The notes under the pieces: model-generated
The model's database searches: none
The model's input: only the letters and a program-made list of their open reading frames with translations
Told to the model about the DNA's origin: nothing
Assembly: GCA_964016885.1 (NCBI GenBank)
Contig: OZ024742.1
Span: 171,802,001-171,866,000, forward strand
DNA length: 64,000 nucleotides
Source: Eledone cirrhosa
Taxonomy: Eukaryota
Direction: 5' to 3'
Position numbers and translations under genes: made by a program
Part shown: positions 3,019-64,000 of the stretch, piece by piece
Layout: every line of letters starts with the position of its first letter
How positions within the stretch are numbered: position 1 is the first letter of the stretch

Positions 3019-4000
3019 CATCATCATCATCATCCTCGTTTAACGTCCACTTTCCACGCTCGCATATATATATATGTAAAAGGTAATGAGAAATAACAGC
3101 TCAGTCCGTACAGTATATTAGGTTAACGCTTGAAATTGCAGGAAGCGGGTCTCTGTTTGTTTTCGCCAAAATCCTGTTTCTTATATAATTAATTCTGCAA
3201 TTAACACTTGATGTAATCGCGTGGGTCTTGTATCATGTTCGGATGATAAAGCTGTATCATTGAAATATGTATAGGGCTTTCGTAGAATTTAAATGATAAA
3301 TTTTCCAGTCCGGCCTTCTTTTAATGTTTTTAATGAATATTTCACTGCGTTGCTGCACAAACAAATGGATTCCTCATCTACAACGATGGATGAACTCCAT
3401 AACGTCGAGTGCTTTAATTTATTGCATCATTATTCACTACCTGGAAACGCCAGTTCCACCTATTGGTAAATAACGTAACACAAACATGATATATATATAT
3501 ATTCATTCCCAAATGTGCACTAAACATATACTATATTAGCTGACCTACTTCTATATTGGAGTGTTTTAATAACAATTTATACAAATATATTTCTTCAGTA
3601 CTTATATAGTTACCTCTAGATTTCCACCATGTTTGGATAAGACACTAAATATTTCTTTTCTGGCCTTGTGCCGAAAATAGAAACAATTATTATCGTTAAT
3701 ATAATCATGACCGTTGCTACTACAAATACTACTTTCACTGCTAGCATTACGACAAACATGATTACTATTACTAAATGTTTTCGATTACACCAGCTTTCCT
3801 GGTCGTCATTTGCTGTGGTGAGTAATATTGAGAATTCAAACCCAACCCGGCGCTCGATTACTTAAAATCCTTCGAAGGTGATCCAATTTCTGCCACCAAA
3901 AAAATGTACATTTGCAAACTAAATTCCACATCTGTTATTTCACAATCACTCCACAGATTCAAAAGGTTTCTCCTTGACCCCCTAGTATTATTATTCGGAT

Positions 4001-6236: not shown

Positions 6237-6578
<342 letters not shown>

Positions 6579-9048: not shown

Positions 9049-9209
9049 GGAACAAGTATGACCCCGACGGCAGAGCTCAAGCCGTTTCGAAACGCCTTGA
9101 GTTCTGCCGTCGGGGTCATACTTGTTCCTATTATCCACTCTACTACCCTAAGTATTGAGTACTTTGGTGCGTTATGGTACATCTTGTTCCTTACCACATC
9201 TCCTTCGTT
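9047..9209. mobile_element. Fold-back PLE pLTR remnant (hairpin of HHR 3' half) with extension, in (TA)n
   Basis: Near-perfect inverted repeat 9047-9130 centred on TTTCGAAA. Each arm is GAAA-CGGC..GCCG-TC-GGGGTC (stem III plus GUC site). A second family copy is at 53077-53284. Confidence 0.8.
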
Positions 9210-20449: not shown

Positions 20450-21052
<603 letters not shown>

Positions 21053-24121: not shown

Positions 24122-24242
24122 CCAGTAAAGAGACGTCGTCGGTTGATAAAATAATCTACTGACTAGTTGTAAATATATGTAAAGCACTCGACAACTTGTG
24201 TTACTTAATGTATTATCAACAAATATCAAACGGAGTGTCGAA

Positions 24243-24425
24243 TTGGTAGTATCGGTAGAAGGTTGGGCGCTATGCTTTCTAGCACAGTTACGTCCCTTTA
24301 CAGTCTGAGTTCAAATCCCGCCGAGGTTAACTTTGCATTTCATCCTTACGGGGTCGATAAAATAAAGTACCAGTAATGTACTAGGTAATTGCTGGCCTTG
24401 TGCCTAAAGTAGAAACAATTATTAT
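24243..24425 (+). mobile_element. SINE
   Basis: Full match to the dominant SINE. Confidence 0.85.
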
Positions 24426-24800
24426 AAATAAGGGAGACGGTTTTAAATGTACATCATCTATTTATTTTACGATCCTGTTATACGTATTTCCAAGACGTCA
24501 ATATATACACTCCCTATGATGACCGGCGGATAAATAGAACCAAATATATATAAGAATGTTCTATACAAATCTCCACTGATGATTTTAAACGAAGGAAACA
24601 GTTATATACCTGTAGAATCCATTTCTATAATGTATTTTGTTGATTCCACTTTACTGATGTATTGCGTATCTTATTTAGTGCGGTTACATCTGATTTCACT
24701 CTGTATCTACACATATAAATTTGCATTATTGAAAAATTATAAATTCCATGTGTGACATCTTCAAGCAACAATACAAACGTGAATAGAGATATTTTCTGAT

Positions 24801-26382: not shown

Positions 26383-26421
<39 letters not shown>

Positions 26422-26455
26422 TTAAAAGAATAGAGGTGTAACACACAAGTTATGA

Positions 26456-26792
26456 TATATTGGTAAACGGATAAGAAAATGCTGACAAATTGTTCACAGT
26501 GAAAAATAGTTTAATTTGGAATAAGTGAGAATTGGTAATAGTATTGGTTAGTATTCAGTTTAGGTTTTAAGTTTTACCGGTTGCGCATTTCTAATGCTTT
26601 TCAAAAATAATTTTGAGAGAGAGCGTCCGTGATGTTTGCTCAAAATTATTTTTGAAAAGCATTAGAAATGCGCAACCAGTAAAACTTAAAACCAAAACTG
26701 AATACTAACCATTACTATTACTAATTCTCACTTATTCCTAATTAAACTATTTTTCACTGTGAACAATTTGTCAGCATTTTCTTTTCCGTTTA

Positions 26793-26798
<6 letters not shown>
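26456..26798. mobile_element. Fold-back palindrome (~160-bp arms), PLE pLTR-like
   Basis: Arms 26456-26616 and 26639-26798 are reverse complements with few mismatches; contains a degenerate GAAA-TGCGCA HHR 3' half; bounded by (TA)n. Confidence 0.8.
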
Positions 26799-26835
<37 letters not shown>

Positions 26836-26842
<7 letters not shown>

Positions 26843-27297
26843 AAAGAACACAAGAGCGTCTACAACATCAAAATATTTTTATTGCCTTACAATGTTTCTT
26901 CCTTACGTAACCGTAGGATTCGTCAGAGCTATAAAAGGGGTTTGATTGGTATTATGGACTCTACCAACCAAACATTCAAGGACCCACACCCCACCCTCCC
27001 GCACCAAAATTAGACTTATCGTCCCCTGATTTTGCTCTTTACTCTCTTTACACTTTGTTCTTGAATGTTTGGTGGGTAGAGTCCATAATGCCAATCAAAC
27101 CCCTTTTATAGCTCTAACGAATCCTACGGTTACGTAAGGAAGAAACATTGTAAGCCAATAAAAATCTTTTGATGTTGTAGACGCTCTTGTGTTCTTTATC
27201 ATATATACGGCTCTGCTCCAAAGCATAGAGCTAATTATTATGCTGCCAATACCTTAATGGGACACGGGTATACAATACCTAACTCCTATTAACGTAA

Positions 27298-39820: not shown

Positions 39821-40240
39821 AGTGACGAAACATAAGTCAATTGCATGAACTCATAATCCTTTATTTACTGCTATATATATTTCGATGATAGCCATTGAAT
39901 GGCTATGACCTCATCAGGCAGTTAGTCAGTTCTTAGATATGCCAGCTCTGTGTTTGTAGTGTTGATGGTATCAGAGCCTTGGGACGTCCCATAGCTCTGA
40001 TACCATCAACACTAAAAACTCAGAGCTGGCATATCTAAGAACTGACTAACTGCCTGATGAGGTCATAGCCATTCAATGGCTATCATCGAAATATATATAG
40101 CAGTAAATAAAGGATTATGAGTTCATGCAATTGACTTATGTTTCGTCACTATTATAACTCCGGAACTTATATCTTCGTTGAGTGCTCCCTATACGCATAC
40201 TGTAGTACTGGATTTTACCAACACTTACTTTCTTGCTTAT
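39821..40240. mobile_element. Near-perfect 330-bp fold-back palindrome with two intact HHRs, plus extension
   Basis: 39821-40150 is self-complementary about GACGTC (39983-39988); the extension is 40151-40240; (TA)n lies on both sides. Confidence 0.9.
40049..40104 (+). ncRNA. Type I hammerhead ribozyme (mirror copy on minus at 39867-39922)
   Basis: ACTGC-CTGATGA-GGTCATAGCCATTCAATGGCTATCATC-GAAA-TATATATA-GCAGT. Confidence 0.85.
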
Positions 40241-53076: not shown

Positions 53077-53282
53077 AGTAACAAGTAAGACCCCGACGGC
53101 TGAGCTCAAGCCGTTTCGACAGCTAATTCTGGACAGCCAATTGTGAGTCCAGAATTAGCCGTCGAAACGGCTTCAGCTCAGCCGTCGGGGTCTTACTTGT
53201 TCCTATTACCCACTTTACTACCCTAAGTATTGAGTACTTTGGTGCGTTATGGTCCACCTGGTTCCTGACCACAATTCCTTCG

Positions 53283-53510: not shown

Positions 53511-54120
53511 ATTAGAATTGGTGCTCTGAAATAGCGATGTATATATGAATGTATATATAGTATATTTTGCAATGCACTGTATGCTTAATTAAAAAACATT
53601 TTGAAGACCATACGCTATTGTTTAAAAGTATTGACTATGTCACTTACTTCTTTTTTCAACAAACAAGGGGAGATAAGCTGACATATCTCTGTTTCATACT
53701 GTTGGTATTCGTCAGAGCCTAGCAAACCCCTTGTTTGTTGAAAATTAGAAATGTTGGATTCTTATAGAATTCCAGTTGCCGGTCCAACAAAAATTGAAAA
53801 TTCATATATACATCGCTATTGCAGAGCACCAATTCTAATTTTCAATTTTTGCTGGACCGGCAACCGCTCTGTATAATAAGTTCCTAATTATTACTGGAAT
53901 TCTATAAATCAAACATTTCTAATTTTCAACAGACAAGAGGAGTGCCAGTCCCTGACGAATACCAACAGTATGAAACACCTGTCAGCTTATCTCCCTTTGT
54001 TTGTTGAAAAAAGAAGTAAGTGACATAGTCACTACTTTAAAACAATAGCGCAAGGTCTTGAAAATGTTTTTAATTAAGCATACCATGCATTGCAAAATAT
54101 ACTATATATACATTCATATA
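53511..54120. mobile_element. Nested inverted-repeat PLE pLTR structure with HHRs
   Basis: Outer arms 53533-53775 / 53894-54120; inner IR 53776-53800 / 53839-53864 enclosing an inverted copy of 53511-53548. Confidence 0.85.
53674..53721 (-). ncRNA. Type I hammerhead ribozyme (degenerate mirror at 53946-53989 +)
   Basis: TAGGCT-CTGACGA-ATACcaacaGTAT-GAAA-CAgagataTG-TC-AGCTTA: all three stems and a GUC triplet. Confidence 0.85.
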
Positions 54121-56672: not shown

Positions 56673-58638
56673 AATATTAAATAAATGGAAACTATATTTA
56701 TAAAACCATATTTATTTCATTATATATATTTCAGGGATATCATATTAACAATATGCTATGCCTTCCTCAGACAAAATACAATATAAACAGTTTTATAGAT
56801 AAATAGATTCGACATACCGTAACAACATCTACTTGCATTTGAGAAGGTTGATTTGGTAGTGACAAAATTGTACACAGAGAGAAAGAAAGAGAGAGAGAAA
56901 GAGAGAAAAAGAGAGAAAAGAGGAAAGAAAGACAGAAAACGAAGAAAAAGAAAAAGAAGAAATGCATGGAACAAAATAGAGAGATGGAAAGATAGATAAA
57001 GAGAAGAACTTCATGTAAAGAAACAGAAAGAGATATATATATAGAGAGAGAGAGGGAATAGAGATAGATACATATATATAGAAAGCTAGGTAGTGGGACG
57101 TCTGTTAAATAACGTATCAATGATACATTTATTTATTTATTTATTTATTTAGCTCTAGTATTAATGTAAGGGAGATATATGGAGGGAAAACCAGCTGTTA
57201 TATAGGGAGAGAAAAAATATAGAGAGAGAGAAAAAGAGAGAGAAAAAATTCAAAAATATCCAGACACAGGCGAGGCGTAAAAACCTCTGTTTTAATGTAG
57301 AGGTATTAGTATTTACAAAACCAGCCTCTACATTGTAAATATCAGTATTCCTGAATGAGATATGTATCCACAATGTGTGAAAATTAATGATCTTATGTTT
57401 AGTTTTTAAAAAAAATTCATATGTTTATGTGATAATTACAAACATCTATGTGAATGTACATGATCAATTCTGCAAACCCCAAGTTCACGGAAAGTATTCT
57501 CAATGCGGTATAAAAATTTAAGTATACATATATGTGTATATAAAGTCAATATTACTATTTCTGTCTCTACTCTACAAGATTATCTATCAAGCAAAAATAG
57601 AGCAGATTTCAATATACTAATAAAAATAAAAATATATATCGGAAACAAAACTAAAAATAAAAATAACAATAATAATAATAAGTAATAATAAAATAGAAAA
57701 CTAAGAAATATTACAAAAGAATATTACATATTAAAAATATTACATATTAAAAAATTTACATATTAAAAATATTAAAAATAAAAATATTAGGAAATACTAC
57801 AATAATAAAAATAAAATAAACCACAAAGATCAACCCTTCAAAATTAATTGACAATATATTGCCAAGTTCATTATAAACATCAGAGTCGAAAAACAGATAA
57901 AGCCAAAAATTATCTATCAAATCGCATCTAGTAAAGATCATTTCAAAAAAGTATAGGATGCCCAATTTGGTCTACATGTGTTCTTATATTTAATATAGAA
58001 GTTTATCTAGTGTAACGTTTATTCGAAATATTTGGATCATCAACTTTTAGGGTAGCTTAATTTTTCATGAAGAATGTTTAAATAAATAAAATAAAAATAA
58101 AAAGAATAAAAAGAGAATCAAAGATTTATCGGCTAGTTTCCCATATAATTATAAATCAAACTAAATATACTACATTTTAAATTTAAATTTATATTTAAAC
58201 GTTGAGTTTAATCTATGTTTGCAACAACTGAATAAATTTGTCCGTAGATTAAGGGAATTTTTAGATTTTAGTATAAAGAATATCTCCTCTGCGCAGAGGT
58301 CACATGTCTCAGAGGATGAATTAAAAGGAATCCCTCTTGAGACTATATTCCAAGCCGTCGAATATCTAACGTTATCTAGCTTAAGTTGCCATAGTACGCC
58401 TGATAGTGCCGTTGAATCTATTTATCTATGAAACTGTTTATATTGTATTTTGTCTGAGGAAGGCATAGCATATTGTTAATATGATATCCCTGAAATATAT
58501 ATAATGAAATAAATATGGTTTTATAAATATAGTTTCCGTTTATTTAATATTGTAAATATACTCCAAATATTTGTCGAGTGCTTTTATATCAGTTATAAAT
58601 ATTTACTACTTGTAACCCAACAATTTAAATATAACTTT

Positions 58639-60460: not shown

Positions 60461-60542
60461 CCCCACCACCACCCCACTCTCAAGAGCGTGAAATTAATAA
60501 ACATTCGTTGTTTTGTTCCTGTTAAAATGTTCCATTATATAT

Positions 60543-61709
60543 ATGTACTCTCGTTATGTAGACGATATCAATATAGTTATAAGAACACCCCCACTAGAGA
60601 GCACTAACAAGTTTGATTTAGAACGTAGCACGATGGAAAGCATCCAGCAGATAGCTAATTCCATACACCAGAGTATAACTGTAACTATAGACTTCCCTTC
60701 CAAACACCCTAACAATAGACTACCTGTATTAGACACAGAACTCTGGATTAACACTATAGACGAGAGAGCCCAAATTCTCCACTCACACTATGCTAAACCC
60801 ATGGCCTCCAAATACCTGATACTCAAAAACTCAGCAATGTCCAGTAGTGCTAAGTTTAATATTCTGATCGCAGATTTGGTACGAGTGATGAAGAATGTGT
60901 CCAGCATGTGCGACCCAACAGAAATGGAAGGACACATCCAACACTTCATCAACCGCATGCAGTTCTCTGGCTACAACCAAAGAGACAGAGTCAGAGTATA
61001 CGAAGGAGCCATGGAAAAGTATAAGACCCTCATAGAACTGGACATGAAAGGAATTTGCCCACTATACAGGAGCAAATCATGGAATAGCTTAGATAGGGCT
61101 AGACATAAGATAGGGAAGGCCACATCATGGTACGACAACCAGAGATATCAGAGTGTCATGTTTGTGGACGCCACCCCTGGAGGGAAATTAGCTAACCAGT
61201 GTAGAAAGGCCCTGAGAAAGACCCACTTAAAAATAAAGGTGGTAGAAAAGCCAGGAACCACCATAAAATCCCTGATCAGCAAAACCTACCCTTTTAAGAA
61301 AACCCACTGTACCAATAGGAAATGTATCATATGTAAGGTGAACCCCCGGATAAACTGTAAAACTAGAAACGTAGTCTATAGCATAAGATGTACAGAGGGT
61401 ACTTGCAGAAACACGACAACAACATACATAGGTGAGACAGCTCGTAGCATAGGTGAAAGGATAGACCAACACTGGGGGGAACTAAAAGGACGAAAAAACG
61501 GGTCAGTACTATACGAACATGCTAGACAACATCATGACGGTAACATAGACAACATGGAAATTAGAATAATATCTAAACATAGGAATGACCCAGCAGATAG
61601 GCAAATCAGAGAGGCCAGTGAAATAGAAATTAGAAGACCAAAGCTAAACAGAAAGAATGAGTGGAACAACAACAACACCCAAACACCCAAACAAACAACA
61701 CTGACCTAA
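60543..61709 (+). CDS. PLE polyprotein C-half: RT (YVDD), thumb, Cys-rich linker and GIY-YIG endonuclease; 5'-truncated
   Basis: SRYVDDI; LPVLDTELW; CTNRKCIIC...CKTRNVVYSIRC...YIGETARS...R..QH; RQIREA..I....LNRKNEW. Begins right after a TA run. Confidence 0.92.
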   Translation: MYSRYVDDINIVIRTPPLESTNKFDLERSTMESIQQIANSIHQSITVTIDFPSKHPNNRLPVLDTELWINTIDERAQILHSHYAKPMASKYLILKNSAMSSSAKFNILIADLVRVMKNVSSMCDPTEMEGHIQHFINRMQFSGYNQRDRVRVYEGAMEKYKTLIELDMKGICPLYRSKSWNSLDRARHKIGKATSWYDNQRYQSVMFVDATPGGKLANQCRKALRKTHLKIKVVEKPGTTIKSLISKTYPFKKTHCTNRKCIICKVNPRINCKTRNVVYSIRCTEGTCRNTTTTYIGETARSIGERIDQHWGELKGRKNGSVLYEHARQHHDGNIDNMEIRIISKHRNDPADRQIREASEIEIRRPKLNRKNEWNNNNTQTPKQTTLT

Positions 61710-62289
61710 GAGAAGTATAAATAAATAAGTAAATTAAATTAAATAAAATAAGATAAATAAATACATACACAAGCACATAAACACACACTAGTCACCCAGC
61801 AGACACAACACTATACACACTAGTCACACATCACACATAACACTATACACACACGCAAACGCATGCGCAAAGAAGACAAAATAAAATAAGATAAACAAAC
61901 AAGCAAATAAATAAATAAATATATAGACAGACTGAACAAAAAAAAAAATGGCGTAGACATACAACACAACAGGAGGAACAATGAATATAACACCACTGAC
62001 GATGTTGCAGATGTGCAACGAAAGATTTATGTAAACTATATATATATGTGTTTGTCTATATTGTATCTGTATTATTTTTGACCGCCGGTCAGTCAATGGC
62101 AACATTGAGGACCGAGTAAGTTAGATCGCAGATATATATATATAAAAGACAGCGAGAAGCGAAAACCAACCAAACAGTGAGTGTGTTCTGTTATTAATTC
62201 TGGCAATATTACGCAAATATGACCCTCCCCAAATATAACAATATCTGTTTCGACACACGATTTCATATAAAAAATCTCGCAAAACTAAT
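61710..62289 (+). mobile_element. 3' UTR/pLTR of the upstream PLE, serving as 5' pLTR of the tandem downstream copy
   Basis: Homologous to the ends of the copies at 9348-9710 and 22584-23090; overlaps the downstream ORF start at 62219. Confidence 0.85.
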
Positions 62290-64000
62290 TCATCGCCGCT
62301 ATGGCATTAACTTGTGCCAAGCTGAAAGGTTATTGAAAGACACTGTTTTCTGTTATATAAAAACTACAATAACAGCAGAACAAATCCGCTTCTTATAACA
62401 CTGTGTTTCCTCCAAAACATACACAACAAACATATCAAAACAAGTAAATAATTTATTATTGAACAAAACACAAGCTGAACGGCTAAAACACACAATAACA
62501 GTTAATATGAAAAGAACAACATACACAAAAGTCAACGCACTCTACAGACAAAAACGCATCAACGGTAAGGAAATCCGAAATCTCATCACAGCAAACGAGA
62601 GAGATGACTTCATGAGCGTCATCCGACGCGAAACGAAATATGCTCAAAACGAATGCTGTAGGCATTTCAAGAAGAAATTAGAATGGATGAATAAGAAAAA
62701 ACTACAAGAAAGGAAAATCGAATATTCTCAAAAATACCCAGATAACATCGACAACATCCGTATGAGTGATGTAAAACTACCGGAAGAATTTACCAATGAC
62801 CACACAGTAAATATCTATGGGAACACTTTAATCAGTGAACAAGAACAACAAATCCTAAAGTTACCACCAAAATTTGCCATCTACAAAAAGATTAATCCTA
62901 TGGAATGCAAAACGGAGCTGGAAAAGTGTTTCACAAAAATACGTTGGAATGCAAAGGTAAACAACAACAACAATAATAACGGTAGTAGTAATATAAACAA
63001 TAACTCTGGGTATAGAAATAACAGCCATAACCATAACAATGGCAGGAAAGTGAGAAATAGTGATAATGGTAATAATACTAGCGATAGACAGAACAACAAC
63101 AACCACAATAATAATAATAATAGAAACGTTAACCACAGACACAGCAACAGTGACCACAGTAGTAATAACGGTAACAATACGAACAACAACAACAATAACC
63201 ACAGTGCTAATAATGGAAATAGTACATGTAGCAACATCAACAAAAACAAGAAACATAATAATAGTAACAACCACAATGGTAGAAATAGCAGTAACAACAA
63301 CAACAATAACGGTGAAGTAAACAACAATACATCTAGCAATCATAACAATAATAATATTAATGCTAAGGATAGAAACAACAACAACCACCATGATAACAAT
63401 AATAGCAACACACACAACTATGACGATAGAAATAACGACAACCCCTTAGAGAAACTATTTTTCAACCCAGCTGACAAAACATATAAGATGGGTAATATCT
63501 ATCCTACGAGGTTACCCTTTAATAAAAGAGTTTGCATACCACAACAAATAGATGACGAGACGGAGGCACAGTTCACCATAGCTAGAAATAAGATTAGACA
63601 AGTAGTAGACAGGTACACTATGAGACAGAGCAGACCAGAGGCCCAACAACTTGGGATAAAACCTGTAGAAGGCTTGGTTAGCCTCAAGCAGCGCACAAGG
63701 GATGGTGAGGTAGTGTGTCTACCCACAGATAAGTCTGGTAGGATGTCAATAGATAGCATGCCGAACTACATCGAGGCAATGCAACCCCACATCACCAACA
63801 CGAGCGAAGTTGCACAACTAACACACGATGGGAGAGAAAAAATCCTCAACGCTCACATGATGATGTGGACTGACATCCTAAAGCCAAGCAGACGCACTGC
63901 CAACAACTTCCAGGCGTCTAACATTGGCATACCACCCTTGTATGGGCTCCGCAAAGACCACAAGACAGTCGACGACCCGACAATAGGACCACCAACAAGA
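62219..64000 (+). pseudogene. PLE ORF N-half (runs off window) with a single nonsense codon at 62396-62398
   Basis: Manual translation: MTLPKYNNICFDTRFHIKNLAKLIHRRYG...QIRFL*HC...LKLPPKFAIY...KIRW-(Asn-rich)-...VVCLPTDKSGRMSIDS..Y...IPPLYGLRKDHK...PTR. One frame throughout; absent from the ORF track. Confidence 0.88.

Follow-up and report, generated by a model that had tools for sequence, protein, structure and literature searches.

The closest described relatives of the elements reported here are the Hydra-clade PLEs, for which Craig 2021 (PMC8557442) described protein motifs, a hammerhead ribozyme, a (TA)n target, tandem and inverted copies, and a tail at one end, all of which our elements have in common with them. 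That paper gave tails of 30-40 bp and ascribed them to the endonuclease, whereas we found a spacing of 55-108 nt and a hairpin at both ends, and it called the origin of the PLE tail and of inverted copies 'still undefined'. Its main text uses neither 'hairpin' nor 'stem-loop', although by eye its consensuses carry the motif described below (PMC8557442). The second relative is the Poseidon element PAc (Frangieh 2024, PMC11167929), whose protein, a predicted dimer, cuts and extends both strands and starts internally at both ends of the tail, at sites that are not homologous to the target. Internal starts at the tail ends, the use of both strands, an AT-rich target, a predicted dimer and a stem loop at the start site are the points of likeness with our elements as we read them, but PAc belongs to another clade, its starts lie inside the ORF, and its stem loop is an AC-rich structure of one element. 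Neither a motif that is conserved or duplicated nor a pairing of ends is reported in the available text of that paper, and by eye its printed Poseidon RNA shows no such tandem motif. The tail, its presence at one end, inverted copies and internal initiation are already published.

In twin priming of L1, two cDNAs started from both target strands lead to an inversion with microhomology at the junction; the internal position of the second start varies, and there is no overlap between the arms. Hydra-type elements differ from this in having two starts at fixed positions and a single region that is copied in both arms. The epsilon of hepatitis B, DIVa of group II introns and the boundary stems of telomerase RNA are RNA stems that bind a reverse transcriptase (RT). 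The likeness to these is that a small stem with a bulge would bring in the RT and set its position, and the difference is that there are two copies located 3' of the starts, with the adjacent one uncopied; no sequence kinship is claimed. A tandem hairpin of this kind, its distance rule and the pairing of one end of each sort were not found in the open literature, and the initial annotation knew of no description of the motif; it may be mentioned in Repbase notes or in papers behind a subscription, among them the Penelope papers of 2004-2006, which lay outside this search.

Hairpin sites in the window and their carriers

The window, by which we mean the whole 64-kb stretch of DNA analysed from a genome of 3.0 Gb, contains abundant (TA)n. 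Since microsatellites swamp a plain repeat search, its repeats were mapped by masked self-BLAST, and this showed several (TA)n-flanked, head-to-head inverted structures with hammerhead cores in their arms and a tail on one arm. The initial annotation had read ten strings in the window as a single hairpin motif shared by such structures. All ten were present, and six of them were full members of one motif, while those at 3394, 6485 and 53520 had been misread or were non-members. When the window was ranked by a covariance model trained on foreign hairpins, these six sites were also the six best matches (9129, 58552, 40149, 53204, 20771 on the minus strand, and 27202; E 1e-4 to 0.8), all of them on the ribozyme strand. 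The short-arm junction, which had been placed about 5-10 nt upstream of the hairpin, was located 6-9 nt upstream at the six full-member sites.

In family A, a Hydra-type PLE, hairpin 1 is a bulged stem at 40157-40185 on the plus strand (covariance model E 0.034, junction mapping). End 1 lies 7 nt ahead of it, at 40149-40150 (plus strand, 21 junctions), and the tail, running from End 1 to End 2, occupies 40150-40237 (plus strand, 17 junctions). The long arm contains a predicted hammerhead core, identified by pattern match, at 40054-40092 (plus strand). The inverted short arm at 39822-39985 (minus strand), which contains a hammerhead core at 39879-39917, ends at End 1, meeting (TA)n at 39822, the base equivalent to End 1.

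Family 0 is represented by two plus-strand copies of hairpin 1, one at 9137-9162 (E 1.4e-4), with End 1 at 9129 and a tail to 9208, and one at 53212-53237 (E 0.12), where one stem base is altered and the tail runs to 53283. Hairpin 1 of family 5 was located at 20774-20794 on the minus strand (E 0.16; short arm 20997-21050), and that of family 17, which has a G-C outer pair, at 27210-27231 on the plus strand (E 0.81), next to an inverted structure at 26840-27200 and with a tail to 27298. Family 1 has its hairpin 1 at 58560-58581 on the plus strand (E 0.003; tail to 58640); the partner arm of this insertion ends at 56680 on the minus strand, and the inverted arm of the insertion retains a fragment of a Hydra-type endonuclease C-terminus at 58200-58412 (minus strand; tblastn 40%/72 aa, E 4e-10).

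At 6485-6506 (minus strand) there is a decayed hairpin 1 of family 8, whose family form has a one-base T bulge. The orphan site at 3394-3412 had been mis-paired, because relatives are without the ACTC at 3394, and this ACTC is not the partner arm; the 5' arm of family 6 lies about 50 nt upstream, degenerate, at 3344, so that comparison with relatives gives a decayed long-loop hairpin 1 at 3344-3412 on the plus strand. The string at 53520-53536 had neither a CTC nor a T-N bulge among the 12 copies listed, and it is not a member. The hammerhead-bearing inverted structure at 53513-54114 has a 35-nt tail that carries the 3' half of the motif only. A probable long-loop hairpin 1 of an orphan tail at 24184-24236 (minus strand) gave a weak match (E 4.9) and had no relative among the sampled structures. 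A SINE-like repeat of 170-190 nt was found at 1474-2025, 24240-24426 and about 20 other sites, in tandem in places, and one copy directly adjoins the orphan hairpin at 24236.

Protein motifs, on which the clade labels rest, support the assignment of the carriers to Hydra-clade PLEs. Motif-bearing ends sit behind ORFs with a CxCx5C linker in families 0, 1, 4, 8 and 36, R-x-R-W-R was seen in the ORF starts of families A, 0, 1 and 17, and copies of family A, to which the 40157 site belongs, read through into a Hydra-type N-terminus. In a young family, an unbroken frame of 781 codons encodes RIRWK at 44, DKT (not DKG) at 128, the CxCx5C linker, and CxxC and CxH around conserved E and N, with no CCHH. 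RWK, DKT, CxCx5C, CxxC, CxH and the absence of CCHH are diagnostic of the Hydra clade according to Craig 2021 (PMC8557442). The insertion target of the motif families is (TA)n, and their unit lengths are 3115 nt (young family) and about 3540 nt, the Hydra clade being generally, not strictly, below 3 kb. The hammerhead core in the pLTR was recognized by regular expression and by eye, and is a predicted ribozyme; there was no hammerhead among the best 150 of 198 Rfam matches listed, and the matches listed were far below gathering and almost all on simple repeats, with none listed at the hairpin sites. In Pfam, five frames of the window matched no family, and the Hydra protein matched no relevant one.

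Tandem near-identical 3115-nt units of the young family, with their 781-codon frames unbroken, occur at L154 and L169 (G000:C2:338034528-338041911). With dozens of almost identical copies across the genome, this Hydra family seems to have been active recently. In the youngest family, hairpin 1 has an outer mismatch, and both hairpins were missed by the covariance model. An array of family A at L012:1497-2557 is a retrozyme-like derivative of a Hydra element; it is made up of five hammerhead units of 135 nt, lacks hairpins, and is capped by one End 1 and one End 2.

The motif had been presented as a property of PLE ends at large, and this did not hold in two other PLE types of this genome. The window ORF at 60501-61709 is of Neptune/Nematis type, with a Cx2-5CxxC linker and CCHH, and its family has one-sided tails without the motif (0/8); the same was true of a second family, with a Neptune-like ORF (0/6). 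The Neptune/Nematis-type family is therefore not the carrier, and since these types have tails without the motif, the motif cannot be the general cause of tails. The tandem copy of a PLE with Cx2-5CxxC and CCHH at 60501-64000 of the window, also seen at L141:1-1842, has an N-terminal insert rich in asparagine, and its tail of 47-62 nt is free of the motif. A Neptune-like inverted structure at 26420-26793 has a 40-nt tail, a TA match of 6-7 nt at End 1 and no motif, and no read-through copy of its family was present among the 8 listed. One family (L048, L058, L062, L068), which has symmetric inverted ends in (TA)n and is tailless, is more like a DNA-transposon derivative.

Two hairpins, two junction peaks and the pairing of ends

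Counted as a literal pattern, the motif was not significantly enriched over shuffled sequence in the window (7 matches against a shuffle mean of 3.55, with 8 of 100 shuffles reaching 7). Because the window alone was unconvincing, 1.2 Mb of fresh sequence was taken from eight contigs of this genome, 300 kb of it adjoining the window, and here the literal pattern was enriched about 2-fold (168 matches against 67-86 in shuffles). The strong evidence against chance is the positional signal. Asymmetric TA-flanked inverted structures were gathered by a rule blind to the motif, giving a collection of 122 structures including the window's own (101 asymmetric, 40 single-linkage families). Outside the window, the structured motif was present between -3 and 25 nt from the junction of the short arm in 48 of 92 structures, representing 16 of 37 families, compared to 5 of 552 control windows inside arms. 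The correlation between junction and motif proposed initially was borne out, with 38 of the 48 motif-bearing structures having it at 5-10 nt. A TA-like stretch at the junction, proposed at the same time, was seen in part: the match was 2.9 nt against a background of 1.1 nt, but it was often 0-1 nt.

Hydra-type PLEs carry the motif twice, between the ribozyme and the ORF. The second hairpin was first seen just beyond the tail end in a tandem copy of the young family. Its presence elsewhere was predicted from that family and confirmed by read-through copies in families A, 0, 1, 17, 6 and 7; in family 35 it is present but less regular. In the family A read-through copies L011 and L021 it lies 8 nt past the tail and is followed by a Hydra-type ORF start. 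Read-through copies with hairpin 2 were L214 and L228 in family 1, and L346, L350 and L362 in family 17. An earlier sample of 30 family 0 loci had 0 read-through copies; hairpin 2 was present in 14 of 20 loci of this family fetched by a pattern that contained CTC, and therefore only the rest of the hairpin is an independent result. For family 5, the DNA search returned nothing and the pattern search showed just the 5' half of hairpin 2. The distance from hairpin 2 to the ORF start is 23-66 nt, and the two hairpins are spaced by 76-108 nt in this genome and 55-83 nt in metagenome loci.

Junctions with (TA)n were mapped on read-through references, overlapping loci being counted twice. Four of the junction-mapped families were fetched by queries containing the tail, and three further references had too few or noisy junctions. 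In all five families with enough copies (5/5), nearly all junctions were concentrated in two peaks, one for each hairpin and 6-10 nt ahead of it. The peaks contained 21 and 17 junctions in family A (7 and 8 nt before the hairpin), 29 and 32 in the young family (6 and 6 nt), 4 and 8 in family 1 (7 and 9 nt), 9 and 16 in family 17 (9 and 10 nt), and 10 and 45 in family 0 (8 and 6 nt), with seven stragglers within 4 nt in the tally of the five families. Since there are two peaks, one per hairpin, the tail equals the hairpin spacing. In L174:3151-3415, a deletion in the End 2 arm removes End 1 and hairpin 1, and the partner arm is still at End 1.

To see how the two ends are combined, 32 young-family insertions were chosen from 99 protein matches regardless of their ends, and 24 of them showed two ends. 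In 23 of these 24 two-armed insertions, one End 1 was paired with one End 2, whereas half would be expected if the ends combined independently (P=1.4e-6); the exception, L253, had two End 2-like ends. The remaining eight comprised one insertion that was mixed by eye and missed by the pattern, one that leaves the stretch, and six single-armed insertions, 2 with End 1 and 4 with End 2. Either end thus occurs alone, and each can be a start. The two arms have unrelated 5' stop points, overlap over the same region and are joined mostly via a few bases of microhomology, and the longer reach in the 5' direction belongs in some insertions to the End 1 arm and in others to the End 2 arm. Arm divergence was 1.26/kb within an insertion versus 4.35/kb between insertions (35 versus 2286 arm pairs, some overlapping). 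As the arms of one insertion share variants, both stem from one source; the shared variants could also arise by fold-back copying or gene conversion.

Stem pairing and occurrence in other organisms

The motif consists of NCTC, a variable inner stem of 2-5 pairs, a loop of any length, a two-base T-N bulge on the 3' side, GAGN and then mostly RCT. As a conserved hairpin, the stem of the initial annotation stood; the T-N bulge with its inner stem, the second copy and the limitation to the Hydra clade had been overlooked. Pairing was tested on 67 hairpins, 50 from metagenomes and 17 from the same genome, with about five mis-anchored rows kept. With a two-base bulge, inner positions 1-4 pair in 58, 51, 52 and 34 of 67 hairpins, and other registers (0, 1, 3, 4 or 5 bases) gave 3-38 of 67. 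Permutation gave P <= 1e-4 at inner positions 1-3, kinship among the hairpins being ignored. The finder for this set demanded T in the bulge; when T was not demanded, the first bulge base was T in 71 of 76. The outer pair among the 67, which was partly used for anchoring, was G-C in 42, A-T in 10 and T-A in 7, and on the sense strand G-U was seen 19 times versus 7 for A-C.

Nine of the 50 metagenome hairpins were dropped as mis-anchored, outside the length range or too close to the contig start. In the 41 kept, 96.7% of cells pair versus 79.9% when shuffled, with 24-52% in slid controls, and 42 cells were changed on both sides versus 14, a value reached by 0 of 500 shuffles; counts of pairs and of pair types in the same 41 hairpins were not above shuffles (311 and 73 of 500). 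The expected covariation was therefore present at the inner stem pairs, in metagenome and own-genome hairpins, while the CTC/GAG core showed none, since it is invariant. RNAalifold recovered just three outer pairs from the gappy 41-hairpin alignment, the hairpins are weak, most having about -3 to -4 kcal/mol, and at 40157 the best predicted fold is another pairing. The few RNAalifold pairs and the weakness of single hairpins suggest that the fold probably requires a protein partner.

Other roles for the sequence fit poorly. The spacer lengths take all three frames and the motif precedes the ORF, which excludes a coding explanation, and a double-stranded dyad site is unlikely given an inner length of 4-69 nt and a one-sided bulge. 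The hairpin is not stem III of the ribozyme, because no GAA stands directly before it (the upstream sequence is mostly A/T), its outer pair varies and is not an invariant A-U, and it sits downstream of a complete hammerhead core. Stem III of several published Hydra ribozymes reads ACTC-N-GAGT (PMC8557442 File S2); this form, also seen in many of L261-L337, echoes the hairpin core, and a shared origin or cross-pairing is possible. The bases after the stem make a GAG-NN-CTC near-palindrome in the metagenome upstream regions L261-L337 and in the window hairpins, and this could pair between two copies or give an alternative fold.

A scan of metagenome contigs yielded 77 Hydra loci, 53 of which had upstream sequence and fell into 34 groups. 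Two copies of the motif were found in 19 groups, one in 8 and none in 7, several of these 7 being truncated or having an unrelated flank. There were 70 matches in 43 upstream regions, compared to 19 in 214 ORF windows and 17 on the reverse strand; shuffled sequence gave 16 at most. Metagenome 3' junctions, measured at alignment ends, numbered 18 from 43 loci, and 14 of the 18 were within -4 to +8 nt of a hairpin. As exceptions, L273 and L296 end at the ribozyme, L300 ends after its single hairpin, and L294 is a spurious alignment. Among six published Hydra consensuses (PMC8557442 File S7), clear copies were visible by eye in coral Hydra-2 and in both sea cucumber elements, one of which has two copies; the copepod element has variant copies, and coral Hydra-1 and the octopus element have degenerate traces only. 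The clade-wide occurrence of the motif, in coral, sea cucumber, copepod and this genome, is real, and there is support, within and across genomes, for a sense-strand stem that is conserved, covaries and keeps a fixed distance to the ends of the element.

How the two ends may arise

From its position, its covariation and the pairing of ends, we infer that the stem positions priming by the reverse transcriptase. We believe it rather probable that the two tandem hairpins are RNA docking sites that set two internal RT starts, each 6-10 nt upstream. The protein, likely paired, would bind both hairpins of the sense RNA, and its GIY-YIG domains would nick both strands of (TA)n. Each 3'-OH would begin a cDNA just 5' of one hairpin, aided by 0-7 nt of TA-like sequence, and the two antisense cDNAs would halt at unrelated points and be joined head to head via short microhomology. 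The arm started at hairpin 2 would copy hairpin 1 and the spacer, which together make the tail, and the arm started at hairpin 1 would have no tail copied. A single cDNA, on integrating, would give a direct insertion with either end. In vitro support for such a two-start model comes from another clade, Poseidon, and would extend to Hydra elements by analogy.

It is unlikely that the hairpins act instead in single-stranded DNA, with GIY-YIG cutting the sense strand 6-10 nt upstream and one or both ends being resolution cuts. The tail was attributed to endonuclease resolution by Craig 2021 (PMC8557442), cutting by the D. virilis endonuclease depends on the tail (cited in Frangieh 2024, PMC11167929), Ssn GIY-YIG nucleases cleave ssDNA at hairpin repeats (PMC11893778), and the sense-strand bias and fixed distance are equally compatible with DNA. 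However, in vitro the Poseidon protein begins cDNA synthesis at each end of the tail (PMC11167929), each end occurs alone in single-armed insertions, and the frequent G-U pairs fit RNA somewhat better. Less likely again is a single cDNA that is primed at one hairpin, folds back and is copied to the other hairpin site, the second end being a stop. Each site would then need a double role as start and stop, because the further-5' arm ends at either End, and for a start at End 1 the tail has no cDNA template, even though fold-back accounts just as well for shared variants, for microhomology at the junction and for the pairing of one end of each sort, and self-priming was proposed for head-to-head repeats (PMC3846280).

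There is only a slight probability that the hairpins direct RNA cleavage or termination 6-10 nt upstream and that the two RNA 3' ends are used in end-primed TPRT. This would leave the mixed ends of 23/24 insertions and the shared variants unexplained, and the Poseidon protein favours internal starts on unprocessed RNA (PMC11167929); what speaks for it is the fixed distance, the sense-strand structure and the hairpin beside a used end, which is never copied. A role in translation control or RNA packaging, with ends set only by TA-like sequence, is very improbable: hairpin 2 does sit 23-66 nt before the ORF start and the junction TA match is 2.9 against 1.1 nt in the background, yet TA-like stretches are common in these regions while the junctions are confined to two sharp peaks and in several families match TA only slightly, and the peaks track the hairpins though the spacing varies from 55 to 108 nt.

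Two docking hairpins thus remain our preferred reading. More tentatively, a paired telomerase-related RT may use the two hairpins of one transcript to make two simultaneous cDNAs, a programmed twin priming in which the spacing would set the tail length and the cis element would be portable to any RNA. The two-copy motif predicts both ends to within a few bases and would explain the tail of Hydra elements, and a boundary rule for their annotation follows from it. The unbroken 781-codon frame of the young family is a source of protein for study. Because telomerase and the PLE RTs are sister groups, a stem in the RNA that places the enzyme would bear on how RTs gained internal templates.
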